Source of the DNA: Geotalea daltonii FRC-32
Lineage (GTDB): Bacteria; Desulfobacterota; Desulfuromonadia; Geobacterales; Geobacteraceae
Direction: 5' to 3'
DNA length: 32,000 nucleotides
Assembly: GCF_000022265.1 (NCBI RefSeq)
Contig: NC_011979.1
Span: forward strand, 2,370,001-2,402,000
The notes under the pieces were generated by a model. That model was not told where the DNA came from, did not search any database, and worked only from the letters and a program-made list of their open reading frames with translations. How positions within the stretch are numbered: position 1 is the stretch's first letter; every line of letters starts with the position of its first letter. Shown here piece by piece: positions 1,251-32,000 of this stretch. The position numbers and the translations under genes were made by a program.

Positions 1251-1265
1251 GAGTGGCTGAGAATC

Positions 1266-2456: not shown

Positions 2457-2950
2457 CAGTCACACGATTTTCACATGAATATCTTGGAATTACGATCGAC
2501 AAAGCAAAACACTCACCACGTTTGAGGCATCACTGTAATATTCATCAGAGCTATGACGACCCTTGCCAGCGTTTATTCAATGCGATCGGCATGGGCAGTT
2601 ATATTCGACCCCATCGGCACTCATGGGACCCTAAAGCTGAATGCCTTGTGGCAGTTCTTGGGCTATTTGCATTAGTGACGTTTGACGACGATGGGTCTGT
2701 TTACGAAGTTGTTCGCTTTGGCACGGAAAAATATGGACAAGCTGAAGACCTGAGCGTTGGAGTCGAATTGCCTTCTGGAACTTGGCACACAGTCATTGCC
2801 TTGGTGCCGGATTCGGTGTTACTTGAGTTGAAAGCTGGACCATTTGATGCTAAGGCGGCAAAGGAGCCTGCTCTGTGGGCACCTATGGAGGGTTCGCCTG
2901 AAGCTAGTTTCTATCTACATTATCTCTTTCGTTTAGTCCATAGTTCTTGA
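2453..2950 (+). CDS. wbuC: WbuC-family cupin-fold protein
   Basis: 165 aa. KAKHSPRLRHHCNIHQSYDDPCQRLFNAIGMGSYIRPHRH...ECLVAVLGLFALVTFDDDGSV matches the WbuC cupin signature. ATGA overlap with the preceding glycosyltransferase (2453-2456). Confidence 0.75.
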   Translation: MTVTRFSHEYLGITIDKAKHSPRLRHHCNIHQSYDDPCQRLFNAIGMGSYIRPHRHSWDPKAECLVAVLGLFALVTFDDDGSVYEVVRFGTEKYGQAEDLSVGVELPSGTWHTVIALVPDSVLLELKAGPFDAKAAKEPALWAPMEGSPEASFYLHYLFRLVHSS

Positions 2951-2960
2951 CGGGGAACAC

Positions 2961-4631
2961 ATGCCGTTGACCACTTATTTTTACATATTTATCTCCGCTC
3001 TGATGACTTCCGTTATTCTTATCCCCCCCATCTCTCGCCTTGCTATCCGGGTTGGTGGCATAGATAAACCTGATGAACGCAAGGTGCATTGCGATGAGAC
3101 TCCCCGTCTTGGTGGAATTGCTATTTTCAGTGCATTTCTATTTTCAACACTGTTCTTCTGCGATATTGATCGGCAAATAAAAGGGTTCCTTTCCGGAGCC
3201 GTGATAATTTTCCTTACTGGTTTGGCCGATGACCTGACAAATCTTTCTCCAAAGCAAAAATTCCTTGGTGAAATCATTGCGGCAGCAGTGGCTGTTATTG
3301 TTGGCGGGCTTGAACTTTCTTCCTTGGGAAACCCTTTTGGCCTGGGACAAATAACTCTGGGGCCACTCGCCATTCCGTTTACTATCTTTGCTGTGGTTGG
3401 GGTCACTAATGCAGTCAATCTTCTTGACGGACTAGATGGTTTGGCTGCCGGCGGGACTGCCATTGCTTGTCTGGCGTTTGGTACCCTTGCCTATCAGACT
3501 GGCAATCATTCTTTGCTTGCGCTGGATGCCGCCCTCCTTGCGGCTATTGTGGGTTTTCTCCGCTACAACACCTACCCGGCTACAATTTTCATGGGGGATT
3601 CAGGAAGTCTCTTCCTTGGTTACTGCATGGGAATTTTTTCAGTTATGCTTGTTACGACCGCTGCTGCTGAAATTTCAGTATTTGTACCGCTTGTTGTCCT
3701 CGCAGTTCCTATTATCGACACATTGGTTGTGATGTCCAACAGGCTGTTTAAGGGCAAGAAGATTTTTTCACCTGACAAGTCGCATATCCATCACAGGCTG
3801 CTTGATCTGGGCATTGGGCATAAATATTGTGTCATTCTGGTATATGGCATTAGCTATTTTCTAAGCCTGTTTGCTGTAGTTTGTTATAGATTCCCAGAAT
3901 ATGTTCTTGTCACTGTTTTGATTGTTGGAGCGACTTTTTTTTATATTGTGGTGAATCTTATCTGTCGCAAAAAAATAGCCGAACGCATTGAATTGAAAAG
4001 CAACCAGCCCATTAGGGAAACACGGACCTATCGGCGGATGGTTGAGTTTTCGCAACGCTTATTGGTATTGTTAAAATATTTGCTCTTGACGATTCTAATC
4101 CTTGCTCTGTTTACACCCTCCGGCAATAATCCGAAGGTTATTTTCACGGCAAGTTTATTACTGCTGCTGTTTGCTATCCTTTTGTTGCTCATGAAGGATA
4201 AGGAGGACATGTTCCTCCATTTCGCTCTCTATTTGAATGGGGCATTTGTTATCTTCATCATGGAAAATCTCGGCAGAGAGACGACCCTGCTTGGTATTCC
4301 ATTGCTTACCATTTCCAATCATCTTTTCTTTTCTCTACTGGCTGTTGAGGGAGCCAAGATCTTCCTGCGGAAGCGGACAGATTATCTTATCAGCAACCCA
4401 TTCGAATATCTGATTCTCCTCATAGTTATTGCTGTTCCACTTTTGCCGACCGATTTCACCAGTCGGTATCACCTGCTTACCGTTGCTGCAAAGTCGGTTA
4501 TTATGTTTGTCGCCTACAGGCTGGTTCTCCTGCGTCAGGTCAGCAAGAACAAGAAAATTGTCTTTGCCACATTCATTGCCTTAATCATCTTTATTGCAAA
4601 ATATCTCATGTCTAATGATTTTCAATTGTGA
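2961..4631 (+). CDS. Polyprenyl-phosphate HexNAc-1-phosphate transferase (MraY/WecA/WbpL family) with about 220 aa of extra C-terminal polytopic membrane domain
   Basis: 556 aa. Motifs LTGLADDLTNLSPKQKF, NAVNLLDGLDGLAAG, FMGDSGSLFLGY and SHIHHRLLDLG lie in the first ~330 aa. The remainder consists of hydrophobic helices. Confidence 0.8.
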   Translation: MPLTTYFYIFISALMTSVILIPPISRLAIRVGGIDKPDERKVHCDETPRLGGIAIFSAFLFSTLFFCDIDRQIKGFLSGAVIIFLTGLADDLTNLSPKQKFLGEIIAAAVAVIVGGLELSSLGNPFGLGQITLGPLAIPFTIFAVVGVTNAVNLLDGLDGLAAGGTAIACLAFGTLAYQTGNHSLLALDAALLAAIVGFLRYNTYPATIFMGDSGSLFLGYCMGIFSVMLVTTAAAEISVFVPLVVLAVPIIDTLVVMSNRLFKGKKIFSPDKSHIHHRLLDLGIGHKYCVILVYGISYFLSLFAVVCYRFPEYVLVTVLIVGATFFYIVVNLICRKKIAERIELKSNQPIRETRTYRRMVEFSQRLLVLLKYLLLTILILALFTPSGNNPKVIFTASLLLLLFAILLLLMKDKEDMFLHFALYLNGAFVIFIMENLGRETTLLGIPLLTISNHLFFSLLAVEGAKIFLRKRTDYLISNPFEYLILLIVIAVPLLPTDFTSRYHLLTVAAKSVIMFVAYRLVLLRQVSKNKKIVFATFIALIIFIAKYLMSNDFQL

Positions 4632-4698
4632 ATGGAATCGGCTATATCAAAAGCTGACATCAAAAATGCTGATTCGGTGATGAAGATCGCAGGTGTTC

Positions 4699-6372
4699 AT
4701 GTCTGGTAAATTTTATTTTTGCAATCTCTGGTTGTTCTGCGCCCTGATATCAGCAGGTTATTGTCTGGTCGGCACTGCACCTAGTGCCTGGGCTCTTTCA
4801 TCTTCCAATATCCCCCTCGATAGCCCCATCTATTCCTACCTGGAAAAGCTTGGTGGTCTTGGTTTGATAAAAAGCGATGTAAAAGGCATCAGGCCTTTTT
4901 CCAAGGCTGAAGCTGCAAGGCTCGTGCTCGAAGCGGAAGGGAACCTTACTGCCGCCGACGTAGGCCAACAGCCTTTTGCAAATGAACTGATCGCCCGCAT
5001 TCATGATCTGATCCCCCGTGAGATATCGCTGCGTAAAAATCCTGATCAAAAGCCGCCGGTTCTCGACCACAATCTGATCTCCTCCCTGCGTTTCCGCTAT
5101 GTCTACCTGGATGGTACATCGCGCAACTATGAGCGTCCAGTCCATGATCCCGGCGATGACGGTGTCTTCGGCCTTGGCTCAGGGTTGCGACCGATAAATC
5201 CTTACCCATCGCCTGCCCAGCAGCGTGGGGCCGAGGGGACGCCGCTTCTTGAAAACAACAACGGCGTTATTTACCGTGACGGCAGCAATGGCGAGCTTCG
5301 TTGGGCGGCGGAGGCCTATCTGAGTGATAAGGTGACCGGTCTCATTGAACCGTCCATTCTCATCGGGGATGATAATCGGATCAGGATGAATCGCGGTTAC
5401 GTCAAGCTTGGAGGCGGCGGCATCGAGCTTGAGTTTGGCAAGGACGAGAACTGGCTTGGCCAAGGCTATCGCGGCAATATTACCCTTACCAGTAATGCCG
5501 AAAACTTTACCCTTGTAAAACTGTCAAGCCCGGAGCCGGTGCGTGTCGGGTGGCTTTCGTGGCTAGGTGATCTTAAGTATGCCCTTATCGCGTCACGGTT
5601 CGACAAGACCAATACCGGCGGAGTAGAGCGTCAGCCATGGTTTTACGCACTGAAGCTGGTATCGAAGCCGACCGACAATCTGGAGATTGGTTTCAACCTG
5701 GGCCGGCAAGTTGGGGGGCCTGGCGTTAAGAGCGGCACCGGCGATACTTTACGTGGGTTGATCGGTGGCACCAGTGCCGACAATTCCAATGGAATGGCTG
5801 GCTTCGAACTTCGCTATCGCATGCCATGGCTGCGCAACACGGAACTATACGGGGAGTTTTCAGGCGAGGATACCGCTTCATTCTGGCCTATAGTTGAGAG
5901 CTATGTGGCCGGCTTTTATATCCCCCGCCTGACGGGTGACGGCAGGAATGATTTCCGCTTCGAGTTTTTCCAGGGCAACCAGATCCTCTATACCAACGGC
6001 ACCTTTCCGGAGGGGTATCTTTACAAAGGGCTGCCCATCGGACATTCCCAAGGCGGGGCCGTTCAGGACTTCTTTGCCCGCTATAGTCATTGGTTTTCCG
6101 TACGCAACAACCTTGCCCTCGAATACATCTTCACCCAACGGGGCAACCTGGGGCGGGTGAAGGTGGACAGTTCCGGTAACTTTGATGCCAACGGGACCCT
6201 GCAGGCGGTGGAACGGAAGCACGCAGGAAGAATCCACTGGCGGTTGCCCATCTACGGCGATATGGATGCCGAGCTGACCTATGGGTATGAGCGGATCAGC
6301 AACTTTGACCTTGTCCCAGGGGCAGGCAGGAAGAATCAGCTCTTTGTTGCGGAAATAACCTATCGATATTGA
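4699..6372 (+). CDS. Capsule-assembly Wzi-family outer-membrane protein
   Basis: The ORF track starts at GTG 4693; ATG 4699 gives MSGKFYFCNLWLFCALISAGYCLVGTAPSAWA, a signal peptide. LDSPIYSYLEKLGGLGLIKSDVKGIRPFSKAEAARLVLEAE is the Wzi N-terminal signature. The body is Gly/aromatic-rich with alternating beta-barrel-like character and ends ...EITYRY. Confidence 0.7.
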   Translation: MSGKFYFCNLWLFCALISAGYCLVGTAPSAWALSSSNIPLDSPIYSYLEKLGGLGLIKSDVKGIRPFSKAEAARLVLEAEGNLTAADVGQQPFANELIARIHDLIPREISLRKNPDQKPPVLDHNLISSLRFRYVYLDGTSRNYERPVHDPGDDGVFGLGSGLRPINPYPSPAQQRGAEGTPLLENNNGVIYRDGSNGELRWAAEAYLSDKVTGLIEPSILIGDDNRIRMNRGYVKLGGGGIELEFGKDENWLGQGYRGNITLTSNAENFTLVKLSSPEPVRVGWLSWLGDLKYALIASRFDKTNTGGVERQPWFYALKLVSKPTDNLEIGFNLGRQVGGPGVKSGTGDTLRGLIGGTSADNSNGMAGFELRYRMPWLRNTELYGEFSGEDTASFWPIVESYVAGFYIPRLTGDGRNDFRFEFFQGNQILYTNGTFPEGYLYKGLPIGHSQGGAVQDFFARYSHWFSVRNNLALEYIFTQRGNLGRVKVDSSGNFDANGTLQAVERKHAGRIHWRLPIYGDMDAELTYGYERISNFDLVPGAGRKNQLFVAEITYRY

Positions 6373-6563: not shown

Positions 6564-7715
6564 ATGATTGAGCGATTTAAATATGCGGCGGTGATGAAGT
6601 CGGTGCAAACGTTTCCGGTCACCGCGCTTTTGGGGCCGCGCCAGGTAGGCAAAACCACGCTTGCCAAGCAGTTGGCCGGGCAGTATGGTGGCTCCACCAT
6701 CTATCTCGATCTGGAACTCCCTTCCGATCTTAACAAACTGCAATCACCGGAATTATACCTGCGGGAACATAGCGATGCACTGATCATTATTGACGAGATC
6801 CAGCGTAAACCGGAGCTCTTTGCCCTACTGAGGGCATTGGTTGATCAGGAACGACGTCCTGGACGTTTTATGATTCTCGGATCAGCCTCACCTGATCTCA
6901 TGCGTCATGCGTCGGAAAGCCTTGCCGGACGTGTTGTCTATCATGAGTTACCACCCCTTTGTCTCACAGAAACCGGTTCCGACAGTATCCGTAAACTATG
7001 GTTGCGTGGTGGCTATCCCAACAGCTTCCTTGCCGGATCTGATGCTGAAAGCCACCAATGGCGGCAAGCCTTTATTGCCACATATCTGGAGCGGGACATT
7101 CCCCAGCTTGGCGTACGTATTCCTGCAGCACAACTGGGCCGTTTCTGGACAATGTTGGCGCACCTGAATGGGCAACTCTGGAATGCCAGCCACATCGCTG
7201 CCGGCATGGGGCTCTCATCGACGACTATGCGGCATTACCTCGATGTTCTTGAGGATACGTTCATTATCCGGCAACTGAAACCGTGGTTCGCAAATACCGG
7301 TAAACGTCTGACCAAGGCACCGAAAATATATTTGCGAGACACAGGATTGCTCCATAGCTTACTGCAACTGGGTACTGAGGATCTCTTGATGAGCCATCCT
7401 GGTGTTGGCAGCTCGTGGGAGGGATTCGTGATCGAGCAGATACTGGCTACGCTCCCTGATGGCTATCAGTCTTTTTTCTATCGCACAAACGCTGGTGCAG
7501 AAATAGACATGATTCTCGCCGATGGGAAGAAAAAGATCGCAGTCGAGGTAAAATATTCCGCCACCCCTAAAGTGTCAAAGGGCTTTTGGTTTGCTTTCAA
7601 AGATCTAGGCTGTCACAAGGGGTATGTAGTATATCCGGGCAGAGACCGCTATCCGATCGGGGAGGGTGTCGAAGCATTGCCGGCTGTGGAACTTTCTGAA
7701 ATTGTCAATCAGTGA
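6564..7715 (+). CDS. AAA+ ATP-binding protein, AAA_14 + DUF4143 architecture
   Basis: 383 aa. Walker A is LLGPRQVGKTTLAKQL and Walker B is ALIIIDEIQ. The DUF4143-type C-terminal half has FWTMLAHLNGQLWNASHIAAGMGLSSTTMRHYLDVLEDTFIIRQLKPWFANTGKRLTKAPKIYLRDTGLLHSLL. Confidence 0.8.
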   Translation: MIERFKYAAVMKSVQTFPVTALLGPRQVGKTTLAKQLAGQYGGSTIYLDLELPSDLNKLQSPELYLREHSDALIIIDEIQRKPELFALLRALVDQERRPGRFMILGSASPDLMRHASESLAGRVVYHELPPLCLTETGSDSIRKLWLRGGYPNSFLAGSDAESHQWRQAFIATYLERDIPQLGVRIPAAQLGRFWTMLAHLNGQLWNASHIAAGMGLSSTTMRHYLDVLEDTFIIRQLKPWFANTGKRLTKAPKIYLRDTGLLHSLLQLGTEDLLMSHPGVGSSWEGFVIEQILATLPDGYQSFFYRTNAGAEIDMILADGKKKIAVEVKYSATPKVSKGFWFAFKDLGCHKGYVVYPGRDRYPIGEGVEALPAVELSEIVNQ

Positions 7716-21972: not shown

Positions 21973-21979
21973 ATCGTGC

Positions 21980-22009
21980 TTTACTTTAGATACATGTATG
22001 GTTTAATAT
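21980..22009 (+). promoter_or_regulatory. Weak candidate sigma70-type promoter for the che-like operon (TTTACT-18 nt-TAATAT)
   Basis: TTTACT is at 21980-21985 and TAATAT at 22004-22009. They lie in the 77-nt AT-rich gap after der. Confidence 0.25.
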
Positions 22010-22049: not shown

Positions 22050-23768
22050 ATGAGTCTTGTCGGAAACTTGGAAGATCTCGGTCTTGGCGAGATACTGCAG
22101 ATAGTCAGCCTGAGTCGGAAGTCCGGAGTTCTCGCTCTTCACAGTCGAGGGAGAGAGGCAAGGATCATTTTCCGTAGCGGACAGGTTATCCGTGCAAACT
22201 CAAGTTCAAATCAGCAAAATCTTGGCGAGGTATTGATCCAGAAGGGGATCATCGATCTCGCTATCCTAAAGCAGGCCCTCAATATCCAGAAGGATGAGGG
22301 GGGGGGCGAGCTTCTCGGAACAATCCTGGTCAAACAATTCAATGTCAATCCGGATGCCATCGAAGATGTGGTCCGTGAACAAATTGAGTCCGTCATCTAC
22401 TCTCTCTTTGCCTGGGCGGAAGGTAACTTTGATTTTGAGCTTCAGGACACTGCTGAAGCCGTCGATAAAACAAAGATGGATCCCTTGCAGTTTATGCTGG
22501 AACAGGGGCTGAATCCACAGTTTCTTGCAATGGAAGGATCCAGGATCATCGATGAAAAACGGCATCGTGGGGAATCACTGGATGATCATGTGGCTGAAGA
22601 GGCCTCGGTCCATGTCGAAGATAATGTGGATATGGCTTTCGATCTCCTGCATTCGCCTGGGCAAGAGCCGGAACAGGCCTCTGTGCCGGAACCTTCGCCC
22701 GGTCTGTCTACTCAGGTTAAAAAGCGGCTGGTCTTGATCGTCGACGATGACGGGGATACACGGAATGCCATATCTTCCATCCTCGAAAGCGATGGTTATG
22801 AGGTTTTCTCCTGTGAAAAGAGCGAGGATGCGCTGATAAAACTTGACAGCTTCTGCCGGGAGGGTCGGGATCCTGCTGTTGTTGTTGACCTGATCATGCC
22901 CAGAATGGACGGTTCCGGCATCCTCGGGGGGCTTGAGCTTCTTGAGTTGATCGGCAACAATTTCGCTTCGCTTCCAGTGCTGGTATTGACTGACTATCAT
23001 AACAGCGATGCGGAGCGAAAGGTTAAGGGGATGGGTTTTCCCGTGATGCTGAAGCCCAGAAAGACCGAGATCGGCGATGCTGCCATGGTTCAGTCCTTCG
23101 GTGACACGTTCCTTTGCGAGCTGATGAGGGTTGAATCCTGTGGAGGTCAAGCCGTTCCCGCAGACAAGATCAATATCGGCGATGAACTGCGGCTCGAGAT
23201 GGGGGATGACACCCCGGTTCGGACACAGCCGGTTGAACAGAGCACGGGTATAACTTTACTGAGGGGCATGCTGGATGAACTCAATAACCCATCACTTGGG
23301 GGGGGGATAATCTTGCTGGTGCTCCGTTTTGCCTCGGAATTCATGAACCGCGCCGTCATACTTATCGTCAAAAAAGACGAGATTGCCGGACTCGGGCAAT
23401 TCGGCATAAGCGACAGCGAAGGAAATGCCGATGCGAAAATAAGGAACATGCGTATTCCCAGAGGGGAATATTCGCTGTTCAGTGAAGTTATCGATGGGCA
23501 GTTGCCGGTAAAGGTTCAGCCTGACTCGGGAAAATGGACCAGATATTTTGTCGGGCAGTTGGGGGGAGGGGTGCCGACGGAATTCTTCATGGGTCCTATA
23601 GTCAGTGAAGGTAAAGTGGTAGCCGTTCTCTATGGTGACAATATCCCTGATGCCAAGCCGATAGGGGATACGGATTCTCTGGAAATCTTCCTTTCCCAGG
23701 CAGGTCTGGCGATGGAAAAGGCCCTTTTGCAGCGCAGATTAAAGGATAAAAGCCGGGAGGAGCTGTGA
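22050..23768 (+). CDS. DUF4388 (PATAN-like) - receiver (REC) - GAF-like C-terminal domain protein
   Basis: 572 aa. The N-terminus GNLEDLGLGEILQIVSLSRKSGVLAL is the DUF4388 signature. The REC domain spans about aa 224-340 with a complete active site: IVDDDGD, VVVDLIMP, LVLTDY, MLKP. The C-terminal ~170 aa (ILLVLRFASEFMNRAVILIVKKDE...VAVLYGDN) looks GAF-like. Confidence 0.8.
   Translation: MSLVGNLEDLGLGEILQIVSLSRKSGVLALHSRGREARIIFRSGQVIRANSSSNQQNLGEVLIQKGIIDLAILKQALNIQKDEGGGELLGTILVKQFNVNPDAIEDVVREQIESVIYSLFAWAEGNFDFELQDTAEAVDKTKMDPLQFMLEQGLNPQFLAMEGSRIIDEKRHRGESLDDHVAEEASVHVEDNVDMAFDLLHSPGQEPEQASVPEPSPGLSTQVKKRLVLIVDDDGDTRNAISSILESDGYEVFSCEKSEDALIKLDSFCREGRDPAVVVDLIMPRMDGSGILGGLELLELIGNNFASLPVLVLTDYHNSDAERKVKGMGFPVMLKPRKTEIGDAAMVQSFGDTFLCELMRVESCGGQAVPADKINIGDELRLEMGDDTPVRTQPVEQSTGITLLRGMLDELNNPSLGGGIILLVLRFASEFMNRAVILIVKKDEIAGLGQFGISDSEGNADAKIRNMRIPRGEYSLFSEVIDGQLPVKVQPDSGKWTRYFVGQLGGGVPTEFFMGPIVSEGKVVAVLYGDNIPDAKPIGDTDSLEIFLSQAGLAMEKALLQRRLKDKSREEL
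22298..22306 (+). repeat. G9 homopolymer tract inside the DUF4388-REC gene (codons E83-G86)
   Basis: Nine consecutive G read directly (gat gaG GGG GGG GGc gag). Confidence 0.95.
23298..23306 (+). repeat. Second G9 homopolymer tract in the same gene (codons G417-G419)
   Basis: Nine consecutive G read directly (ctt GGG GGG GGG ata). A further G6-A-G4 lies at 23561-23571. Confidence 0.95.
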
Positions 23769-24130
23769 AAAAGATATTGATAGCAGAAGACTCTAATACC
23801 ATGCGCTCATTGCTGATCTCAACAATAGACTCCATGGACAGATACGAAATCGTCGAAGCAGCCAGCGGGTTCGAGGCTCTTCGTCTGTTGCCCCGCGAAC
23901 AGGTTCACCTCATCATCACCGATATAAACATGCCTGATATAAATGGTCTTGAATTGATAAGCTATGTGAGAAACAACCCCAACTATCAAGATATCCCTCT
24001 TTTCATCATATCGACGGAAAGCAGTGACAAGGATCTTGAGAAGGGACTCGCCCTTGGTGCCAATGAATACCTGGTAAAACCCTTCGATCCTGTCAAGCTG
24101 CAGGAACTCATTGGCAGATATCTTGGGTAA
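23765..24130 (+). CDS. cheY: CheY-like single-domain response regulator
   Basis: 121 aa. IAEDS, IITDINMP, FIISTES and YLVKPF are present. The GTG start overlaps the upstream stop (GTGA). Confidence 0.85.
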   Translation: MKKILIAEDSNTMRSLLISTIDSMDRYEIVEAASGFEALRLLPREQVHLIITDINMPDINGLELISYVRNNPNYQDIPLFIISTESSDKDLEKGLALGANEYLVKPFDPVKLQELIGRYLG

Positions 24131-24173
24131 TTTTCGGTTAGGCAGGGAGTCAAAATCAATAGGGTGAGAGTTT

Positions 24174-26219
24174 ATGGCCGCAGATACTAGTATAGACAAA
24201 GCTGCCAAGGATTTTCTTGCAGAAGCAGAAGAAATTATCGACCAGTTAAGCCTTGATCTGGTCTCTCTCAGCGACTGCGCTGACAGTGGCGACTTCAATC
24301 CGGACGTGGTCAATTCCATCTTCCGCGGCGCCCATTCACTTAAAGGGCTTGCCGGCATGTTCGGCTTTACCGACATCGCAGACCTTTCCCACAACATGGA
24401 GAACCTCCTTGACTCCCTTCGACTCGGGAAAATCCCCTTGAACCAGAATACCATCAGCGTTCTTTTCGATTCCATGGAAATCCTGGGTTCGCTGGTGAGA
24501 GGTGCGGGTTCTGCCGATTCAGGGAAAACGGACATATCTCAGACCATATCCCGTATCAATGCCTGTGTCGCTTTGGTGCAGAAAGATGAGGGTGCATCTC
24601 CTCTGACCAGACTGGGACTTTCAGAGCGAGTACTCAGCTCCCTTACCGAATATGAAGAACATCGTCTGCTGGAGAATGTGAAAAAGAACAAGAATATCTT
24701 CTCCATCCAGGCGTCCTTCAGTCTCTCCACATTTGATCAGGATCTGGGAGAACTTACCGAAATCCTCAAGGGTGCCGGAGAAGTGATCAGCACCCTGCCA
24801 AGCGCCGGTGGTGGTCTTGATTCCTCCATAAACTTCGAGATCCTCTTCGGATCGGAAAAGGGTACTGCAGAAATAAGCCTGCTTATCGACCGGGACAATA
24901 TCACCGTAAATCAATTGGGGGGTAAGCAGCCTGCGGTTACAGCAGCAAAAGCAAAAGCAGAAGTAGTAGAAGAAGCTGAAGCCGAAAAAGAGTCATCTGT
25001 CCTGCCTCAGGAAGCTTCTTTGACTGCTAAGAGTATGAGTCGTACCGTCAGGGTGGATATCAGCAAACTTGATGAATTGATGAACATCGTGGGGGAGCTG
25101 GTGCTTTCCCACTCCACGATCAGTCAGATAGCTGACCGCATGCGACTGGAAGGCTATTCGGCCCCCGCCATAAATCTGACCAAGGCTGCCAAGGGATTGG
25201 AGAGAAAACTGACCGAACTGCAGAAGGGTGTCATGGAAATCCGCATGATTCCTGTGGGTCAGCTTTTTGAGAAGATGGCACGCATTGTGCGGAAAATTTC
25301 CCGTGAACAGGGCAAAAAGGTGGAACTGAGGTTGTTCGGCGCCGATACGGAGCTGGATAAACTTATCATAGAAGACATTTCCGACCCGATGATGCACATT
25401 ATCCGCAATGCCATCGACCACGGTATTGAGACCCCAGGTGAACGGGTCAGGGCAGGGAAGGACGAAAAAGGTATCATCAAGCTTTCCTCCTACCAGAAAG
25501 GGAACCATGTCGTTATCGAGGTTGAGGACGATGGTGGCGGGATAGATGTCGATAAAGTAAGGCGTAAGGCTTTCGACAAGGGGTTGATACCGAGCATGGA
25601 GTCGGTCCATGACAGAGAGGCGCTGGATCTGATATTCCTTCCCGGCTTCTCCACAAGTGACGAGGTGAGTGAGATTTCAGGGCGCGGCGTCGGCATGGAT
25701 GTGGTCAGGACCAACATCGCCGCCCTGTCCGGCATGGTGGATGTTGAAAGCGTTCCCGGCAAAGGTAGCAGTATCATCATAACCCTGCCCATCACACTTG
25801 CCATTATCAAGGCACTCATAATCTCTTCCGTCGGCCGAATCTATGCTCTTCCCATTACATCAGTCCTGGAAACCATAATGGTGGAAAGGAAGGATGTGCG
25901 TACTGTGGAAAAGAAGGAAGTTATCCAGTTGCGGGAAACAACCCTGCCCCTGCTTCGTCTGGGCAGGTTCTTCGAAACCCAGTCACAAATCGACCAAGGG
26001 GAAAATTTTTATGTGGTGGTGGTCGGCGCCGCCGAGAAGCGACTGGGTATAGTGGTCGATGATCTGATGGGGCAGCAGGATATAGTCATTAAGTCTATCG
26101 GTGAAACATTTAAAAATTTCAAGGGTATTTCCGGTGCTGCCGACCTTGGGGACCAGCGAACCATCCTGGTACTTGATGTGGGCGGTATAATCAACGAGGC
26201 GGTCAGGAGCGGGGCTTAA
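24174..26219 (+). CDS. cheA: Chemotaxis histidine kinase CheA
   Basis: 681 aa. Hpt is FRGAHSLKGLAGMFGF. The dimerisation region is RTVRVDISKLDELMNIVGELV. N box is HIIRNAIDHGIE, G1 is DDGGGID, G2 is GRGVGMDVV. A CheW-like P5 domain lies at the C-terminus. Confidence 0.93.
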   Translation: MAADTSIDKAAKDFLAEAEEIIDQLSLDLVSLSDCADSGDFNPDVVNSIFRGAHSLKGLAGMFGFTDIADLSHNMENLLDSLRLGKIPLNQNTISVLFDSMEILGSLVRGAGSADSGKTDISQTISRINACVALVQKDEGASPLTRLGLSERVLSSLTEYEEHRLLENVKKNKNIFSIQASFSLSTFDQDLGELTEILKGAGEVISTLPSAGGGLDSSINFEILFGSEKGTAEISLLIDRDNITVNQLGGKQPAVTAAKAKAEVVEEAEAEKESSVLPQEASLTAKSMSRTVRVDISKLDELMNIVGELVLSHSTISQIADRMRLEGYSAPAINLTKAAKGLERKLTELQKGVMEIRMIPVGQLFEKMARIVRKISREQGKKVELRLFGADTELDKLIIEDISDPMMHIIRNAIDHGIETPGERVRAGKDEKGIIKLSSYQKGNHVVIEVEDDGGGIDVDKVRRKAFDKGLIPSMESVHDREALDLIFLPGFSTSDEVSEISGRGVGMDVVRTNIAALSGMVDVESVPGKGSSIIITLPITLAIIKALIISSVGRIYALPITSVLETIMVERKDVRTVEKKEVIQLRETTLPLLRLGRFFETQSQIDQGENFYVVVVGAAEKRLGIVVDDLMGQQDIVIKSIGETFKNFKGISGAADLGDQRTILVLDVGGIINEAVRSGA

Positions 26220-27019
26220 TGTACAAGACATTTTACGGATTCCGTGAAAAGCCTTTCAGCAAAACACCTGATCCACGTTTTCTTTACATGAGTGTTGGTC
26301 ATCGTGAGGCGCTGGCCCGGCTCCAATATGTTCTTGAAGAGCGTGAGATTGCCATTCTGACCGGAGAGATCGGGTGTGGGAAAACCACCATTTCCCGTGC
26401 CCTCATGGACGCAATGGGGGATGTATACCACTTCTGCTTCATTTTTAATCCAAGGTTGGCTGCTATTGAATTTTTGCGGGTCATTGCAGCGAACCTGGGT
26501 GTGGAGAAACCCTCTACGGCCAAAGATTTTCTTCTGGGGGAAATCACCCAGGCACTTTACGATCTCCACGAGAACGGTCGCTGCCTGGTTGTCGTTGTCG
26601 ATGAGGCACAACTGATCCCTGATAGGGAAATTTTCGACGAGATACGGCTTTTGACCAATTTCCAATTGGATGACCAGAATCTTCTCAGCATTATCATCAT
26701 GGGACAGCCGGAGCTCCGCAGGATTGTCTCGGCGCCGCTTTTTGAACCATTTCGGCAGCGGGTTGCCATGACCTACCATCTGCTGCCTTTGACCCTGGAG
26801 GAAACCCAGGAATATCTCGATTTCAGAATGACGGTGGCTGGCGGATGCGCCGGGCTTTTCGCTCCGGATGCGGTACAGCGGATTTATGAGCTGACAGGTG
26901 GCGTACCAAGAAAAATAAATACGTTGGCAACTAACGCCCTTCTTACCGGTTTCGCCAAGGATCTGGCATGGATCGATGCATCTGTCATCGAAGATATAAA
27001 GAATGAAATAATCATCTGA
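26219..27019 (+). CDS. ExeA/GspA/MshM-type AAA ATPase
   Basis: 266 aa. YKTFYGFREKPFSKTPDPRFLYMSVGHREALARLQY is the ExeA-type N-terminus. Walker A is GEIGCGKTT and Walker B is LVVVVDEAQ. The ATG shares one base with the cheA stop (TAATG). Confidence 0.8.
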   Translation: MYKTFYGFREKPFSKTPDPRFLYMSVGHREALARLQYVLEEREIAILTGEIGCGKTTISRALMDAMGDVYHFCFIFNPRLAAIEFLRVIAANLGVEKPSTAKDFLLGEITQALYDLHENGRCLVVVVDEAQLIPDREIFDEIRLLTNFQLDDQNLLSIIIMGQPELRRIVSAPLFEPFRQRVAMTYHLLPLTLEETQEYLDFRMTVAGGCAGLFAPDAVQRIYELTGGVPRKINTLATNALLTGFAKDLAWIDASVIEDIKNEIII

Positions 27020-27034
27020 TCAGCAGGGCCAACT

Positions 27035-27967
27035 ATGAACTTAGCCGATATAAGAAAAAAAGCGCAGCAGGAAAAGGAAGCCCTACAGGCGGCATTGGCC
27101 GAATTGACACATGAAACTGCTGATTCCTTTGATGGGGAAGATGATTATCCTGAAGCATACAATGACCCGCTTTATGATGCCGAAGCATCCTTTGAAGACG
27201 GTGAGTCTTTTGAGACTGACGGGCCTATTGCCGCAGAAGACCAAGTTTCAGGCAAAGGCGACTGGTCTGCTGTAATGGACGCAGGCCCCCTTTCTCCTGA
27301 GGATATCTTTCCTGAGCAGATGGAAGTGGTGCTTGACGCTCGGGGCATTTCGGGTCAGGACATGTCGCCACCTTCGCCACAGGTGCCGAAAACTGTCTCG
27401 GCGCCGGTTGTAGAAGAAAAGACGGCCTCTTCCGGCTTCGATCCCATAAGGGTCATGCTTGAAGGACGTGCCAGCGCCGGCCAGGATGAGGATGCATTTA
27501 TCGGCCCCGCAACAAATCTGGAGATCGATGCCGCAAATTCCCAGGAGTTGCTGTGTTTCAGAGTCGCTTCCGAGGAGTATGCACTGAACATCATGGAAAT
27601 CAAGGAGATCATCAAGCCGCGCGAGGTCACCGAAGTTCCGCGTGTACCAGCTTTCGTCTCGGGGGTGCTTTCCCTGCGGGGAATCATTATCCCCATTTTT
27701 GATATGAACGCCAGGTTGGGCCTTTCCAGAGATGGTTCTACCGGAAAGGAGCGGATAATTGTCGTCAAAAACGGCGATGATGGCTTTTGCGGGATACTTG
27801 TAGATGAGGTCGTTCAGGTCGTACGTATAGAAGACAGGTTGCTGGAGCCTCCACCAACGGTTCTTGACGGGATAGATCGTGATTTCGTCAGCGGTATAGG
27901 TCGTTATCATGGCAGAATGCTGATTTTGCTCAACATGGACAAGATTCTGGATATTACCCTTTACTGA
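27035..27967 (+). CDS. CheW-domain protein with a ~170-aa acidic, low-complexity N-terminal extension
   Basis: 310 aa. The CheW core is LLCFRVASEEYALNIMEIKEIIKPREVTEVPRVPAFVSGVLSLRGIIIPIFDMNARLG. The N-terminus is rich in D/E/P/A. Confidence 0.85.
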   Translation: MNLADIRKKAQQEKEALQAALAELTHETADSFDGEDDYPEAYNDPLYDAEASFEDGESFETDGPIAAEDQVSGKGDWSAVMDAGPLSPEDIFPEQMEVVLDARGISGQDMSPPSPQVPKTVSAPVVEEKTASSGFDPIRVMLEGRASAGQDEDAFIGPATNLEIDAANSQELLCFRVASEEYALNIMEIKEIIKPREVTEVPRVPAFVSGVLSLRGIIIPIFDMNARLGLSRDGSTGKERIIVVKNGDDGFCGILVDEVVQVVRIEDRLLEPPPTVLDGIDRDFVSGIGRYHGRMLILLNMDKILDITLY

Positions 27968-27983
27968 CAGACGGGGGAAGAAC

Positions 27984-28358
27984 ATGCACAGTAAAAAGAT
28001 TCTTATTGTTGAAGACGAAGAGAGTCTGCTGAAATTGGAGAGCATCCTTCTTTCATCCAAAGGCTATTCAGTCGTCGGTGTAATGGACGGTAAAGCAGCT
28101 CTTGAAGAAGTTAAGGCCAATCGCCCGGATCTGGTGGTGCTGGATGTCATGCTCCCGGAAATGGACGGTTTCGAAGTCTGCCGGCATATCAAGGAAAACC
28201 CTGAAACCAGCAGCATCCCAGTCGTCATGCTCACAGCGAAGAAAAGCAATAATGACGTGGAGCGGGGAAAACAGGCAGGAGCTGAAGCATATATAACCAA
28301 ACCCTTCAAGTCGGCAAAAGTCATAGAGGTAATCGAAGGCCTCATCAGCGGCCATTAA
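27984..28358 (+). CDS. Single-domain response regulator (CheY-like)
   Basis: 124 aa. IVEDEES, VVLDVMLP, VMLTAKK and YITKPF are present. Confidence 0.85.
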   Translation: MHSKKILIVEDEESLLKLESILLSSKGYSVVGVMDGKAALEEVKANRPDLVVLDVMLPEMDGFEVCRHIKENPETSSIPVVMLTAKKSNNDVERGKQAGAEAYITKPFKSAKVIEVIEGLISGH

Positions 28359-28403
28359 CGCCTCGTACGACTCAAAACCAACTGGATTGAAGAAGGAACA
28401 GCG

Positions 28404-28886
28404 ATGCACTCCGATAATAGTGATATTCAAGTCGCCTGCTTTACCCTTGATGACAACATTTACGCAGTGGATATCATGCGTATCAGAGAAATCATCAAAC
28501 CTCAGAAGCTGACCAGCCTGCCCAAGGCACCCCCCTATGTGGAAGGAGTCATAAATCTGCGTGGTTCCGTTATTCCGGTCATCGACCTGCGTAAAAGGTT
28601 CGATCTGCCGGTCCGCGAAATCGACAGCGCGGTAAGGCTGCTGATTGTGAGAGTGGCAAAGCAACTACTTGGATTTGTCGTTGATAATGTTACCGAAGTC
28701 ATCACCGTGCCTGCCAGAGATATAAAACCGCCGCCACAGATAGCAGGAGGGATTGGTGCCCAGTACCTCCTTGGAGTCTGCCTGTTCCAGGAGGCACTGA
28801 TCATGCTGTTGAACATCGACACAATATTTACTGACAGAGAGGCTTCCGAACTAGGGCTGATTGGCTCTATGCATGGTGAAGGTTGA
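28404..28886 (+). CDS. cheW: Chemotaxis coupling protein CheW
   Basis: 160 aa. VACFTLDDNIYAVDIMRIREIIKPQKLTSLPKAPPYVEGVINLRGSVIPVIDLRKRF. Confidence 0.9.
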   Translation: MHSDNSDIQVACFTLDDNIYAVDIMRIREIIKPQKLTSLPKAPPYVEGVINLRGSVIPVIDLRKRFDLPVREIDSAVRLLIVRVAKQLLGFVVDNVTEVITVPARDIKPPPQIAGGIGAQYLLGVCLFQEALIMLLNIDTIFTDREASELGLIGSMHGEG

Positions 28887-28912
28887 GATTTACCGGTGAG
28901 GGAAAGGCTGAC

Positions 28913-29884
28913 ATGCTTATCATTTGTCCCAGTTGCAAGACAAAATTCAGTTTCGACGACTCGAAGATAGGCCCACAAGGAATAAAGCTTAGATGCAGCA
29001 AGTGCCGGACGATCTTCAGTGTGACCAGGAAGCTCGAGACTCCAGTGCCTGCTCCAGTTCCTCCAGCGCCACCAGTGGCGGCGACTCCGGCTGCCCGAAA
29101 TATAAAGGTCATCATTGCGAACGAAAGCGCCTCTTTCTGTGGGGCAGTGGCAAAAATTCTGGAACCTGAGCCGTTTACGGTCTTAACCTTCAATGACGGC
29201 AAGGAAGCTTTCGAGGCTGTGCAGCGTGTGCGCCCCGATGTGATATTGCTGGATGTGGCGCTTCCCTCCATGTACGGATTCGAGGTGTGTGAGAGGATCA
29301 GAAAGGATCCTGCTCTTTCTGCAGTGAAAATCATTCTTATTGCCGCTATTTACGATAAAACACGCTATAAACGGTCACCGATTTCCCTGTATGGTGCAGA
29401 TGATTACATCGAGAAGCATCATATACCCGATTCTCTTGTTTCCATGATCTACCGCTATGTGACGGATCAAAAGCCTTTGGAAAAACCTAGAGGAGATGAA
29501 TCCGCCACCGTCAGCGAAAGCATGGTTACGCCGCAGCATTTGGACCAGAAGGAAATAAATGCACAGCTGGATGCACGCAGGCAAATGCAGGCTGCTGAAG
29601 AACAGGAGACTGTGCCACCTGCTGCCGCAATATCTTCAGAAGCCCATGAGAAGGCCAAGCGACTGGCCCGGATAATTGTCTCCGACATCATTCTCTATAA
29701 TCAGACAAAGGTAGAAGAAGGGGTCAAAAACGGCTCCTTTTACTCCTTGTTGGAAGATGACATCCGTGAAGGACGGGCCCTTTATGAGCGTCGGGTCCCT
29801 GAGGAGATCAGGAAAAATACTTCATTCCTTGACACCGCCTTTGAGGAACTGATTGCAAAGAAGAAGCAGGAACTGAAACTGTGA
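28913..29884 (+). CDS. MJ0042-type zinc-ribbon protein fused to a partly degenerate receiver-like domain and a helical C-terminal module
   Basis: MLIICPSCKTKFSFDDSKIGPQGIKLRCSKCRTIFSV is a CxxC...CxxC ribbon, followed by a Pro/Ala linker. The REC-like region is IKVIIANES...VILLDVALP...IILIAAIY...YIEKHH. ATG 28913 follows GAGGGAAAGG. A TTG at 28883 is an alternative start. Confidence 0.7.
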   Translation: MLIICPSCKTKFSFDDSKIGPQGIKLRCSKCRTIFSVTRKLETPVPAPVPPAPPVAATPAARNIKVIIANESASFCGAVAKILEPEPFTVLTFNDGKEAFEAVQRVRPDVILLDVALPSMYGFEVCERIRKDPALSAVKIILIAAIYDKTRYKRSPISLYGADDYIEKHHIPDSLVSMIYRYVTDQKPLEKPRGDESATVSESMVTPQHLDQKEINAQLDARRQMQAAEEQETVPPAAAISSEAHEKAKRLARIIVSDIILYNQTKVEEGVKNGSFYSLLEDDIREGRALYERRVPEEIRKNTSFLDTAFEELIAKKKQELKL

Positions 29885-29903
29885 AGCATGCTTTATCGTC
29901 ACA

Positions 29904-31928
29904 ATGGAGAGCGTAGTGGATAGACTGCAGATTCTGATCGAGGCGCTTTGTTCGGCCGACGAAGAGAAAAGGAGGCTGGCAGTGGTCGGATTGAGGGATT
30001 ATCCCCTCGATCAGACACTGGATAGCCTTTTTCTGGCCCTGGGGGATACCAGCTGGCGGGTCCGCAAAGAGGCTGTTGACATAATTGTGATGGCCGCAGA
30101 AGGAGAAAGCGCCGGCAATCTTCAGGAAGAACTCGTCAACATGCTCAGGTCCCAGGATAATGCCGGGTTACGCAATTCAGCCGTGGAATCACTGGAAAAA
30201 CTGGGGAAAAAGGCTTCCAAGGTCCTGTGTCTTCATATTGCCGACGAAGACCATGATGTGCGTAAATTCATCATCGACATTATGGGCAATATCGGTGATC
30301 CTGCTTTCGTCCCTGCACTGATCAATGCTTTGGACGATCCGGATGCCAATGCCCGTGCTGCCGCTGCCGAAAATCTTGGGAAAATTCAGGATGCGCGCGC
30401 CTTGCCTGAGCTTCTTGAGGCTTTGGCAAAGAGTGATGTGTTGCTCAAATACACGATTCTCGAAGCTGTGGGCAAGATCGGGCAGTCGGTTCCTGTGTCT
30501 GCCATTGCTCCTCTTGCCAACGACAACCTCCTCAAAAAAGCCGTCTATGACTGTCTTGGTGCGATAGGCGATCTCGATGCAATTCCGCTGTTGGTTGAAG
30601 GATTGAAGGACAGGCAGAAAAAGGCCCGCGAAGCTGCCGCAACTGGTCTTGTCGCCCTGAGGAAGCGCCTCTCTTCTTCGTCGGGTGCAGAGATAATGGA
30701 TAATAAACTGGAGCAGCTGAAGGGGACATCCCATGTGGATGATCTGATCGACTCCTTCAATAATGCTGAAAACAGCTTGAAAGAGGCTTTTGCCATTCTT
30801 CTCGGTGTCATCGGCGATGCAAGAGCGGCCAAACCTCTTCTTTTAGGCTGCAATGATGACAGGCTCAGAAGGCTGTGTTTGCAAGCATTGAGAAAGATTG
30901 GGAACGCAGCAGCAGCTTCGCTGCTTGAAGTTTTCCCCTCTGCAGAAGACGATCAGCGTTGTTTCATCGTCTATCTCTGTGGTGAACTCGGCTGCAAGGA
31001 ATCGGTATCGCTTCTGACGGAAGGGATGCTGGACCTGAATCCTCAGCTGCGGCTTGCTTCGGTCAAAGCTGCCGGAAAGACCGGTCTCACTGTTTTTGTT
31101 AATGAGGTGGCCCATCTTCTTGAAGATAACGAAAAGGAAGTCAGAAACGGGGCCATAGAAGCTCTCTACAGGCTAGCCGAAACAGACAGATTCTCAGTGG
31201 CAAGGATTGCCGGCAAGCTGGCTTCTTCGGACCTGGCTGAAAAGAGACGCAATGCGGCCGTGCTCTGCACAGCCCTGGCTGATACGGAGAGGCTTTCGCT
31301 TCTGGTTAAGGATGAGGATGCAACGGTGCGGAAGGCTGCAGTAAGTTCACTGGCCAGCCTTAAATCAGTTGCCAGTGCCGGTCATCTGGTCATGGCTCTG
31401 GTCGATGAGGATCCGGATGTCCGTATCGCTGCAGCTGGAGCTTTGGGGGATGTGGGAAGTGAGGAAGTCGTCGGGCCACTGCTGCTGGCTTTGCAGGATG
31501 ACGACCCCTGGGTTCAGTGTGCGGTGTTGAAAAGCCTGGGCAACCTGAAAAACGAGGCAGCGTTGCCTGCCATAGTCCAGCTGTTCGAACGCGCCGATGG
31601 GCTTGTGCTTATAACTGCACTGGATGCTGTAGCAAAGATCGGAGGGGAGGCGGCAAGGGCACTTGTTGAGAAAGCGCTGGACAATTCCGATGAAGAGGTG
31701 GTTAAGGCTGCAATCGACATATTAACCCAGGAAAACGACGCATGGGTGCATACGCACCGCGATAAACTTTTAAACCACCCCCACTGGGATGTGAGAAGCA
31801 CCTTCATAAAAGCCATGGTTTCACGGTTGGGAGAAAAGTCGTTTCCTTATCTGCGACAGGCTCTTCAAACCGAAACCGATGAATTGGTCAAGGGGCAGAT
31901 CATCGAGTTGATGGATCGGGTTCTTTAA
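29904..31928 (+). CDS. HEAT-repeat (PBS-lyase HEAT-like) protein
   Basis: 674 aa of recurring ~31-aa units. Examples are DEDHDVRKFIIDIMGNIGDPAFVPALINALDD, PDANARAAAAENLGKIQDARALPELLEAL, DEDPDVRIAAAGALGDVGSEEVVGPLLLALQDDD and PWVQCAVLKSLGNLKNEAALPAI. Confidence 0.85.
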   Translation: MESVVDRLQILIEALCSADEEKRRLAVVGLRDYPLDQTLDSLFLALGDTSWRVRKEAVDIIVMAAEGESAGNLQEELVNMLRSQDNAGLRNSAVESLEKLGKKASKVLCLHIADEDHDVRKFIIDIMGNIGDPAFVPALINALDDPDANARAAAAENLGKIQDARALPELLEALAKSDVLLKYTILEAVGKIGQSVPVSAIAPLANDNLLKKAVYDCLGAIGDLDAIPLLVEGLKDRQKKAREAAATGLVALRKRLSSSSGAEIMDNKLEQLKGTSHVDDLIDSFNNAENSLKEAFAILLGVIGDARAAKPLLLGCNDDRLRRLCLQALRKIGNAAAASLLEVFPSAEDDQRCFIVYLCGELGCKESVSLLTEGMLDLNPQLRLASVKAAGKTGLTVFVNEVAHLLEDNEKEVRNGAIEALYRLAETDRFSVARIAGKLASSDLAEKRRNAAVLCTALADTERLSLLVKDEDATVRKAAVSSLASLKSVASAGHLVMALVDEDPDVRIAAAGALGDVGSEEVVGPLLLALQDDDPWVQCAVLKSLGNLKNEAALPAIVQLFERADGLVLITALDAVAKIGGEAARALVEKALDNSDEEVVKAAIDILTQENDAWVHTHRDKLLNHPHWDVRSTFIKAMVSRLGEKSFPYLRQALQTETDELVKGQIIELMDRVL

Positions 31929-32000
31929 TGTTCTACTCAGACCCTGAAGTACAAATGACCGATGAAGAGTTCCGCCTGATACGGGACCTTATCTATACCC
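31928..32000 (+). CDS. cheR: 5' end of a CheR-type MCP methyltransferase (truncated by the window edge)
   Basis: MFYSDPEVQMTDEEFRLIRDLIYT... The 'EFxxxRxLIY' motif is the usual CheR N-terminal helix. The ATG shares one base with the HEAT-protein stop (TAATG). ATG 31955 is an in-frame alternative. Confidence 0.55.
   Translation, partial: MFYSDPEVQMTDEEFRLIRDLIYT

Follow-up and report, generated by a model that had tools for sequence, protein, structure and literature searches.

A chemotaxis-like operon of Geotalea daltonii FRC-32 belongs to the beta-group/Esn cluster and probably has a non-flagellar output

What does a chemotaxis-like pathway do when its operon encodes one kinase, several proteins foreign to textbook chemotaxis and no receptor? 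The question is raised by a 32,000-nucleotide (nt) stretch of the Geotalea daltonii FRC-32 genome (contig NC_011979.1, positions 2,370,001 to 2,402,000; hereafter the window), in which ten tightly packed plus-strand open reading frames (ORFs), numbered here g1 to g10 (Table 1), run from position 22050 to the window end. A preliminary description, made from the sequence alone, had proposed a Che-like pathway with an alternative output at the surface, pilus or secretion machinery. We concluded that the operon is the G. daltonii copy of the beta-group/Esn operon and that it probably encodes a non-flagellar chemotaxis-like pathway whose targets would be type IV pili, polarity and matrix; any direct tie to the pili or to secretion is an inference. 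New in this analysis are the full gene list, a conserved promoter, the distribution in Nitrospirota, a rule that ties g8 to a terminal GAF-REC gene pair, the fold of the g4 ATPase and a RomX homologue within the Esn operon.

The cluster is already known for the FRC-32 strain itself, because Geobacter sp. FRC-32 is one of the carriers that Tran et al. (2008) name for their delta-proteobacterial "beta group", a group of unknown function without mcp genes, that is, genes for methyl-accepting chemotaxis proteins (MCPs) (PMC2577667). In two G. sulfurreducens loci (L081 and L082) the order is rnc, a radical-SAM gene, era, der, PatA_N-REC (561 amino acids, aa), REC, CheA, ATPase, CheW (252 aa), REC, CheW, zinc-ribbon-REC, HEAT, CheR, CheB, a GAF protein (274 aa) and REC, and a c7-type multihaem cytochrome comes next; in G. 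daltonii the corresponding position is beyond the window end. This order fits the published locus tags, in which GSU2222 is CheA (EsnC), GSU2221 the ATPase and GSU2220 a CheW (EsnB) (PMC5585712), while GSU2224 is a response regulator beside GSU2225 (EngA/Der) and GSU2223 (CheY) (PMC8242959); the G. sulfurreducens locus is che cluster 5, GSU2224-GSU2212. The two marks of beta-group/Esn membership, clustered cheA, cheW, cheR and cheB without mcp and gene-for-gene synteny, are both present in G. daltonii, and the earlier suggestion of a syntenic G. sulfurreducens cluster next to der/era proved correct, era and der standing directly upstream of it. In one of the two loci (L081:16388-17328, AP028967) cheB is split into two called ORFs, for REC (167 aa) and methylesterase (162 aa), and the region is about 175 bp shorter than in L082 (16388-17503), where cheB is intact with 371 aa; this is possibly a strain-specific cheB lesion.

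Function has been studied in G. sulfurreducens. In transposon sequencing (Tn-Seq) on electrodes the fitness values were -2.4 for GSU2220, -2.1 for GSU2221, -2.8 for GSU2222 and -2.4 for GSU1704, which encodes the GAF-MCP EsnA, and deletion of esnA, esnB, esnC or esnD (a diguanylate cyclase) caused a severe defect of growth on electrodes with normal Fe(III) oxide reduction (PMC5585712). EsnA, a class-40H receptor, associates with EsnB and EsnC by two-hybrid analysis in G. sulfurreducens (PMC5585712). A search for oxygen-tolerant mutants that aggregate more and form more biofilm yielded a Tn5 insertion in GSU2224 (PMC8242959), and Tran et al. cite unpublished results in which cluster 5 knockouts affected how extracellular matrix material is expressed (PMC2577667). 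A 2021 review of Geobacter chemotaxis does not mention the cluster. A non-flagellar cell-surface output, as the preliminary description suggested, is thus supported by the esnB and esnC electrode phenotypes, the GSU2221 Tn-Seq value, the GSU2224 insertion, the distribution in Desulfuromonas and the PATAN and RomX-like domains discussed below. Its further statement that the cluster is specific to delta-proteobacteria and of unknown function agrees with the classing of Tran et al. (2008) and has to be revised on both counts, since Nitrospirota carry the system as well and electrode and biofilm phenotypes have been published.

We next consider the conservation of the operon. An ATPase alignment was used to scan genomes, and the 80 best loci are all from Desulfuromonadia (52-83% identity); ORFs in the loci were assigned by phmmer, with the window proteins and the downstream genes of G. 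sulfurreducens as references, and component counts refer to the 74 loci that span cheA to cheR. The gene order recurs in more than 70 loci of other species, so the arrangement is not due to chance. The ATPase (g4) and the long CheW (g5) are found in 74/74 loci, the second CheW (g7) and the HEAT protein (g9) in 71/74 each, the HEAT protein also in Nitrospirota versions, and the g6 receiver in 46/74. The co-occurrence of the accessory genes with CheA, named as a check in the preliminary description, holds for the ATPase and HEAT genes, which are not absent from orthologous operons, and the zinc-ribbon gene (g8) occurs in 34/74. An orthologue of g1 was found in 64 of 68 loci, and der stands upstream of the operon in 64 of 68. 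All g8-positive loci (34/34) carry the terminal GAF and REC genes; among the g8-negative loci (n = 34) the GAF gene is absent in 29, and at least one of the two terminal genes is retained in 5. The presence of g8 implies the GAF-REC pair and the reverse is not true. MCP-like ORFs were seen at one of the 83 loci L001-L083 only (L079), far upstream of the operon, and no pil genes were found in the window or in the flanks.

The same che module also surrounds ATPase relatives of 41-50% identity. In an unclassified "Deltaproteobacteria bacterium" (L083) the module reads PatA_N, REC, CheA, ATPase, CheW, zinc-ribbon-REC, HEAT, CheR, CheB, GAF, REC; g8 is present, and the module sits between a riboflavin operon with nusB and leuS. 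At a second locus (L084), assigned to Thermodesulfovibrionales since its ATPase falls in a 90%-identity cluster with a named protein of that order, we found PatA_N, REC, CheA, ATPase, CheW, MCP, a periplasmic binding protein, a second MCP, CheW, HEAT, CheR and CheB next to trpA and trpB. The in-operon MCP of 949 aa carries Mcp40H-20_sensor, HAMP, MCPsignal and phosphonate-binding domains. A Nitrospirota metagenome-assembled genome has the same order as L084 with one MCP and with GAF and REC genes at the end, and of the 120 best relatives of the Thermodesulfovibrionales ATPase, those with a named taxon are all Nitrospirota. The system is not confined to delta-proteobacteria: Nitrospirota carry it, with receptors in the operon. 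The receptor is thus encoded inside the operon in Nitrospirota and outside it in G. sulfurreducens (EsnA/GSU1704). In a Nitrospirota genome (GCA_016195565.1, L087:489-7608) about 7 kb of RHS-repeat/YD-shell and small unknown genes lie between the PATAN gene and the other che genes, and this block resembles a toxin cassette inserted into the operon.

Inspection of ORFs and junctions bore out ten genes with gaps of at most 45 nt and three overlapping junctions: GTGA at 23765 (g1/g2, a 4-nt overlap) and TAATG at 26217 (g3/g4, where the ATPase start overlaps the cheA stop) and 31926 (g9/g10). Upstream neighbours of the operon in the window are rnc, a radical-SAM gene, era and der. The start of g8 is the ATG at 28913, as annotated on the contig with identical proteins; a TTG at 28883 is an alternative. 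Long minus-strand ORFs opposite the che genes were taken as spurious because each plus-strand ORF has strong family matches. A promoter/terminator scan of the window gave no convincing internal terminators, and Rfam and tRNA scans of the window gave no matches. The part of g10 inside the window translates as MFYSDPEVQMTDEEFRLIRDLIYT. On the contig with the same HEAT protein, CheR (291 aa), CheB (353 aa) and one further gene come next, and the N-terminus of G. sulfurreducens CheR is near-identical; the 24 codons in view are identified as cheR from these two observations. The complete unit has 13 genes, the rest of CheR, CheB, the GAF protein and a second CheY lying beyond the window. The earlier remark that no MCP or CheB appears before the window end is right for the window, but CheB is encoded directly after cheR outside it; extension downstream thus supplied cheB, and no receptor gene was found in the operon of the Desulfuromonadia loci examined.

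Table 1. Predicted promoter and genes of the che operon in the window (Pfam E-values)
Feature	Position	Strand	Description
Sigma-70-like promoter (predicted)	21979..22009	+	CTTTACTT at 21979, -35 TTTACT 21980-21985, 18-nt spacer, -10 TAATAT 22004-22009
g1	22050..23768	+	PATAN (DUF4388/PatA_N) + canonical REC + weakly GAF-like C-terminus; GSU2224 orthologue
g2	23765..24130	+	single-domain CheY-like receiver; GSU2223 position; REC 1e-26
g3	24174..26219	+	CheA histidine kinase; GSU2222/EsnC orthologue
g4	26219..27019	+	stand-alone ExeA-family AAA+ ATPase, 266 aa; GSU2221 orthologue; AAA_22 3.3e-20
g5	27035..27967	+	CheW with 170-aa N-terminal extension; GSU2220/EsnB orthologue
g6	27984..28358	+	single-domain receiver, variable component; REC 2.7e-31
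g7	28404..28886	+	canonical CheW; CheW 1.6e-38
g8	28913..29884	+	MJ0042-type zinc ribbon, divergent REC, disordered linker, RomX-like domain; GSU2217 position
g9	29904..31928	+	674-aa HEAT-repeat (PBS-lyase-type) protein; GSU2216 position
g10	31928..32000	+	first 24 codons of cheR, truncated by window end

Domain calls for g1 to g9 were made by Pfam search of the window proteins. They agree with the preliminary description for DUF4388-REC, CheA, the ATPase, the CheW proteins, the receivers, the zinc ribbon and the HEAT protein (HEAT_2 4.8e-72, in 7 stretches), and they match its count of four receiver-type and three CheW-type domains (two proteins and CheA P5) for one kinase; the GAF-like call for g1 is weak. 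CheA (g3) has P1 Hpt, P3 (H-kinase_dim), P4 (HATPase_c) and P5 (CheW) domains with no fused receiver, and scores 383-417 bits against NCBIfam CheA models. In g5 the CheW domain covers residues 171-306 (1.7e-36), and the acidic, low-complexity N-terminal extension gave no Pfam match. The four receivers of the window (g1, g2, g6 and g8) were aligned to E. coli CheY. Their key residues (at D12-D13/D57/T87/K109) are DD/D/T/K in g1, which is canonical, ED/D/S/K in g2, ED/D/T/K in g6 and N-E/D/A/K in g8. What had been described as a zinc ribbon with a pseudo-REC is thus a degenerate receiver, but it is not Asp-less, since the equivalents of Asp57 and Lys109 are present.

The PATAN protein g1 matches DUF4388/PatA_N at 1.4e-29, followed by REC. 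Inside the PATAN match, residues 52-111 (window 22203-22382) resemble the N-terminal repeats of the pilus ATPase PilF (6f8l; E 1.6e-6 by protein, 8.9e-9 by profile), and this alpha-helical insertion consists of two tandem MshEN/T2SSE_N-like 24-mers. It is the known PATAN alpha-clip (bioRxiv 10.1101/2021.06.11.447907). In Synechocystis PATAN has PilB1 and PilC as binding partners, and MglA and MglB homologues are frequently encoded close to PATAN proteins (bioRxiv 10.1101/2021.06.11.447907). A PATAN-REC regulator paired with a CheY, one mark of the type IV pilus (Tfp) class of chemosensory systems, is found here as g1 and g2. A role of g1 as receptor for cyclic di-GMP (c-di-GMP) was considered and demoted: the match to NF053729 falls just under the cutoff, and the motif-II Arg, retained in 38/54 orthologues, is Leu in FRC-32. 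Because the motif-I Arg is replaced by N or S in 54/54 orthologues and the motif-II Arg is lost in FRC-32, g1 is a poor receptor candidate. The C-terminus matches GAF_2 at a sub-threshold E of 0.013 in the window protein and at E of 0.01 or less in 16/36 orthologues (best 4.2e-5). BLASTP found no similarity between it and the GAF protein of the operon, and a PDB profile search with g1 gave no GAF domain among the top 60 matches. Outside Desulfuromonadia the PATAN proteins (L083:5680-7455, 591 aa; L084:2976-4094, 372 aa) have no Pfam REC, so the REC and GAF-like part of g1 may be lineage-specific additions.

The second candidate output protein is g8 (Zn_ribbon_4 8.1e-16, REC 1.6e-17). Its orthologues share an unusual motif, YKRxPxSLYGADDYIEKHH, which is invariant across 29 sequences, and its C-terminus (residues about 245-323) forms a three-helix, RomX-like domain. 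The profile of g8 orthologues matches the crystal structure of Myxococcus xanthus RomX (8zna_A) at E 5.5e-21, and the C-terminal 83 residues alone match RomX residues 4-83 at E 3.5e-14 with about 45% identity. According to the preprint that reports the structure, helix-1 residues R11, R14 and D19 of RomX contact MglA-GTP and helix 3 binds the RomR receiver (bioRxiv 10.1101/2024.02.20.581209). The three contact residues align to R250, R253 and D258 of g8; R253 and D258 do not vary in either orthologue set (n = 29 and n = 40). R250 is fixed within Geobacteraceae, with R, K or Q at this position outside the family. In helix 3, Leu-Arg of RomX aligns to Ala-Lys of g8. In the AlphaFold2 (AF2) model, from an alignment built, as for g4, from database matches, the receiver and C-terminal helices are confident (domain predicted local distance difference test, pLDDT, 83-94; C-terminal domain helical, 83-93) and the relative domain placement is not (predicted template modelling score, pTM, 0.46). 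Foldseek with the whole model gave receiver domains as its sole matches, therefore the RomX assignment rests on sequence; by this measure the g8 C-terminus is predicted to be a true RomX homologue that keeps the residues reported as MglA-GTP contacts. The same preprint shows a Desulfuromonas zinc-finger/REC/RomX-like protein as a Foldseek match, with no discussion of the gene context of that protein in the part available (bioRxiv 10.1101/2024.02.20.581209), and our literature search found no paper that names both RomX and Geobacter. Potential partners are present in the group: G. sulfurreducens MglA is 82% identical to M. xanthus MglA and has an MglB partner (PMC3000849), MglA (GSU0099) and MglB (GSU0098) are among the best-conserved proteins of six Geobacter genomes including FRC-32 (PMC2825233), and RomR homologues occur in Geobacter and Pelobacter (PMC3441718).

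The ATPase g4, which matches a G. daltonii FRC-32 protein at 100% identity, is 70% identical to the G. sulfurreducens GSU2221-cluster protein (P0087; the cluster includes AAR35597), with Walker A (GxxGxGKT) and Walker B (DE) motifs that are invariant among orthologues. Its AF2 model (pLDDT 92) has MuB, archaeal Cdc6/Orc1 and TnsC as best PDB matches, and the fold is confidently predicted as an AAA+ of the initiator/loader type, MuB/Cdc6/TnsC-like. MuB, Cdc6/Orc1 and TnsC are all ATP-dependent assembly or recruitment switches. The ExeA/GspA/MshM and PEP-CTERM ATPases (TIGR03015) have the AAA_22 core in common with g4, and g4 aligns end to end with that model at 233.1 bits, under the cutoff of 324.5; most relatives of that type are 500-800 aa long, and g4 lacks their C-terminal extension. 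There are no ExeB/GspB or secretin genes around g4, which is flanked by cheA and cheW. Thus neither a score above cutoff nor the secretin, pseudopilin or polysaccharide-export partners of TIGR03015 members, in which the C-terminal extension is often peptidoglycan-binding, were found for g4. At L085:7742-20795 a stand-alone ATPase with 44% identity, from a 90%-identity cluster that also contains Candidatus Desantisbacteria proteins, has pseudopilin-like genes (N_methyl, PilX_N) on one side and HD, TPR and Wza/Wzc/Wzy-type polysaccharide-export genes on the other. Surface-structure loci are therefore the setting of the nearest non-Che relatives of g4. Among 50%-cluster representatives the best score for the ATPase was that of P0121 (674 aa), which has two matching stretches, the better one at 358-622, a possible duplication or fusion.

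The 77-nt spacer between der and g1 carries CTTTACTT, and in 52/69 der-g1 spacers of other species this element is followed at equal distance by a -10 box of the TATGAT/TATATT/TAATAT type. The resulting pattern, CTTTACTT-N(about 15)-TAT..T, has an extended and unusually invariant -35 region. A consensus scan called no sigma-70 site upstream of g1 because its threshold was 9/12 matches, and the motif was revealed by the cross-species comparison. This conservation argues for a predicted sigma-70-like promoter of the operon's own and for an independent transcription unit that starts at g1; the place beside der would then be a matter of lineage synteny and not of co-transcription. CTTTACTT occurs only 69 times on the two strands of 3.1 Mb of locus sequence. 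The only other copy in the window, at 16493 on the plus strand inside the minus-strand gene holB, is probably there by chance.

The mechanism that we favour for this non-flagellar pathway may be outlined as follows. Orphan 40H receptors would form arrays with the two CheW proteins and CheA, with adaptation by CheR and CheB, and CheA would phosphorylate several receivers. The type IV pilus motor may be the target of the PATAN-REC protein, as judged from cyanobacterial PatA-type regulators, which bind PilB/PilC through PATAN, and g8, where present, may couple the pathway to the polarity GTPase MglA-GTP. The HEAT protein could be a partner or scaffold under CheY control, on the model of Cpc7 in M. 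xanthus Che7. The MuB/Cdc6-like ATPase could give the complex an ATP-dependent switch, for assembly or as an adaptor. A c-di-GMP branch would come from an orphan GGDEF receiver, which in G. sulfurreducens is EsnD, and the net output would be the pilus, polarity and matrix behaviour required for surface colonisation. Within this scheme we tentatively propose, as less likely than not, that g8 is a chemosensory adaptor for MglA-GTP through which the Esn/beta-group pathway steers the MglA/MglB switch and the placement of polar type IV pili or nanowires.

Several points weigh against this scheme. Any link of the operon to pili, MglA or secretion is putative, and the candidate for the output put forward in the literature is an orphan diguanylate cyclase, EsnD (PMC5585712); the analogy from PATAN to pili is drawn from cyanobacteria alone; and CheA was assigned by generic models (Pfam, NCBIfam) rather than MiST-type class hidden Markov models. 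For g8 in particular, phosphorylation of its receiver is doubtful because D12 and T87 are absent and the Asp57 equivalent is N or S in 3/29 orthologues. The alignment with RomX ends before RomX Trp87, so that the RomR-type interface lies outside the match, the role of RomR/RomX as guanine nucleotide exchange factor is disputed (PMC13408092), and the presence of MglA in FRC-32 is taken from the literature. Finally, g8 is absent from about half of the loci, therefore the RomX branch is not the core output and is an accessory branch at most.

Would a second messenger explain the phenotypes without any action on pili or polarity? CheA would then signal to an orphan GGDEF receiver of the EsnD type, c-di-GMP would drive matrix and biofilm genes, and the accessory proteins would serve the array only. 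This account is possible but on balance doubtful. It draws support from the esnD deletion, which gives the same electrode-growth phenotype as loss of esnA, esnB or esnC and led its authors to propose a c-di-GMP-reinforcing loop (PMC5585712), from the unpublished matrix effect cited by Tran et al., from the GAF domains in EsnA and one operon protein, and from the likeness of the ATPase to assembly switches. Yet in every case studied PATAN serves as an output domain (bioRxiv 10.1101/2021.06.11.447907), the RomX-like domain retains its MglA-GTP contact residues, two of them invariant, and the MshEN-like insertion of g1, without the motif-I Arg, makes a poor c-di-GMP receptor.

A conventional operon for flagellar chemotaxis, joined by some hitch-hiking genes, would account for the full CheA, CheW, CheY, CheR and CheB set and for the match of CheA to generic CheA models, but this idea is largely refuted and we consider it very improbable. 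No locus has flagellar genes within 10 kb, the predictions of Tran et al. gave the cluster no sigma-28 site (PMC2577667), and the published phenotypes concern growth on electrodes and not swimming (PMC5585712). Among the Desulfuromonas strains compared, 5/5 carry beta-group clusters and 2/5 are described as flagellum-harbouring (PMC8235581), so that neither flagellar linkage nor restriction to flagellated hosts, the marks of the flagellar (F) class, was found; accessory genes present in 71-74 of 74 loci, and across two phyla, do not look like hitch-hikers. Even less credible is a functional tie to the Era/Der GTPases, with the RomX-like domain binding one of them, for example, and sensing thereby linked to ribosome biogenesis. 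It would explain why der so regularly stands directly upstream (64/68), and RomX is indeed a partner of a small GTPase, but the conserved promoter separates der from g1, many der-adjoining loci have no g8, and outside Desulfuromonadia the contexts differ: L083, which has g8, follows the riboflavin operon with nusB, and L084 lies beside trpA/trpB.

If the pathway does act through MglA, g8 would be a one-protein counterpart of the Myxococcus Frz to RomR/RomX link in a non-gliding metal reducer, and this connection would explain the failure of esn mutants to colonise electrodes, with the PATAN-REC protein acting in parallel on the pilus motor. Since the system is needed for electrode colonisation, it is relevant to bioelectrochemical systems and bioremediation. 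The candidates for output are the RomX homologue, expected to bind Geobacter MglA, the PATAN regulator, expected to bind the pilus motor, and the MuB/Cdc6-like ATPase, and the in-operon receptors of Nitrospirota offer a route towards the sensed signal.

Elsewhere in the window, positions 123-6372 encode a UDP-GlcNAc 2-epimerase, a GT1 glycosyltransferase, a DUF6016 protein, a GT4 (WecA-like) transferase and the capsule assembly protein Wzi, and over 3-5 kb within this polysaccharide gene set the GC content falls to 0.45. A stand-alone AAA_14/DUF4143 ATPase (6564-7715) lies between the capsule genes and yicC. ATPases of this type are often tied to mobile elements or defence.

Compared with known systems, the first three genes resemble the cyanobacterial Tax/Pix (Tfp-type) systems, in which a PATAN-REC regulator and a plain CheY stand beside CheA and CheW and in which the PATAN alpha-clip, like the g1 insertion, is related to the N-termini of type II secretion and type IV pilus ATPases. 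In contrast to Tax/Pix, the G. daltonii CheA is not a hybrid kinase and the operon has no photoreceptor MCP; g1 adds a GAF-like domain, and CheR, CheB, ATPase and HEAT genes are extra. The combination of hybrid CheA, in-cluster MCP and pil linkage that defines the Tfp class is thus not seen in G. daltonii. In M. xanthus, the Che7 system is associated with a HEAT-repeat protein, Cpc7, as g9 is with the present operon, and Che8 has the same layout with no MCP, two CheW, two CheY (one at each end), CheB, CheR and two unassigned genes; by locus tags CheA8 (MXAN_4758) adjoins CheW8b (MXAN_4757), so that the ATPase is apparently absent. The likeness to Che8 and Che7 is one of layout and description, and the best 80 loci of the genome scan included Desulfuromonadia alone. 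Tran et al. place one M. xanthus cluster in the beta group (PMC2577667). The Frz to RomR/RomX to MglA module of M. xanthus likewise combines a chemosensory system with a receiver and a RomX domain. It differs in that g8 fuses REC and the RomX-like domain in one protein, adds an N-terminal zinc ribbon, lacks RomR-C, has a degenerate REC and is encoded inside the che operon. The Nitrospirota version, with an ATPase 46-50% identical, keeps the order PatA_N, REC, CheA, ATPase, CheW, CheW, HEAT, CheR, CheB of G. daltonii; it differs by one or two MCP genes inside the operon (with a periplasmic binding protein added at one locus), by the lack of a zinc-ribbon/REC/RomX gene, by a shorter PATAN protein with no REC match and by another genomic context. 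Closest of all is G. sulfurreducens che cluster 5 (GSU2224-GSU2212), which has identical content and order over 13 genes, lies like the G. daltonii operon downstream of rnc/radical-SAM/era/der with the same promoter motif and no in-operon mcp, and differs from it in species only, with no structural difference.

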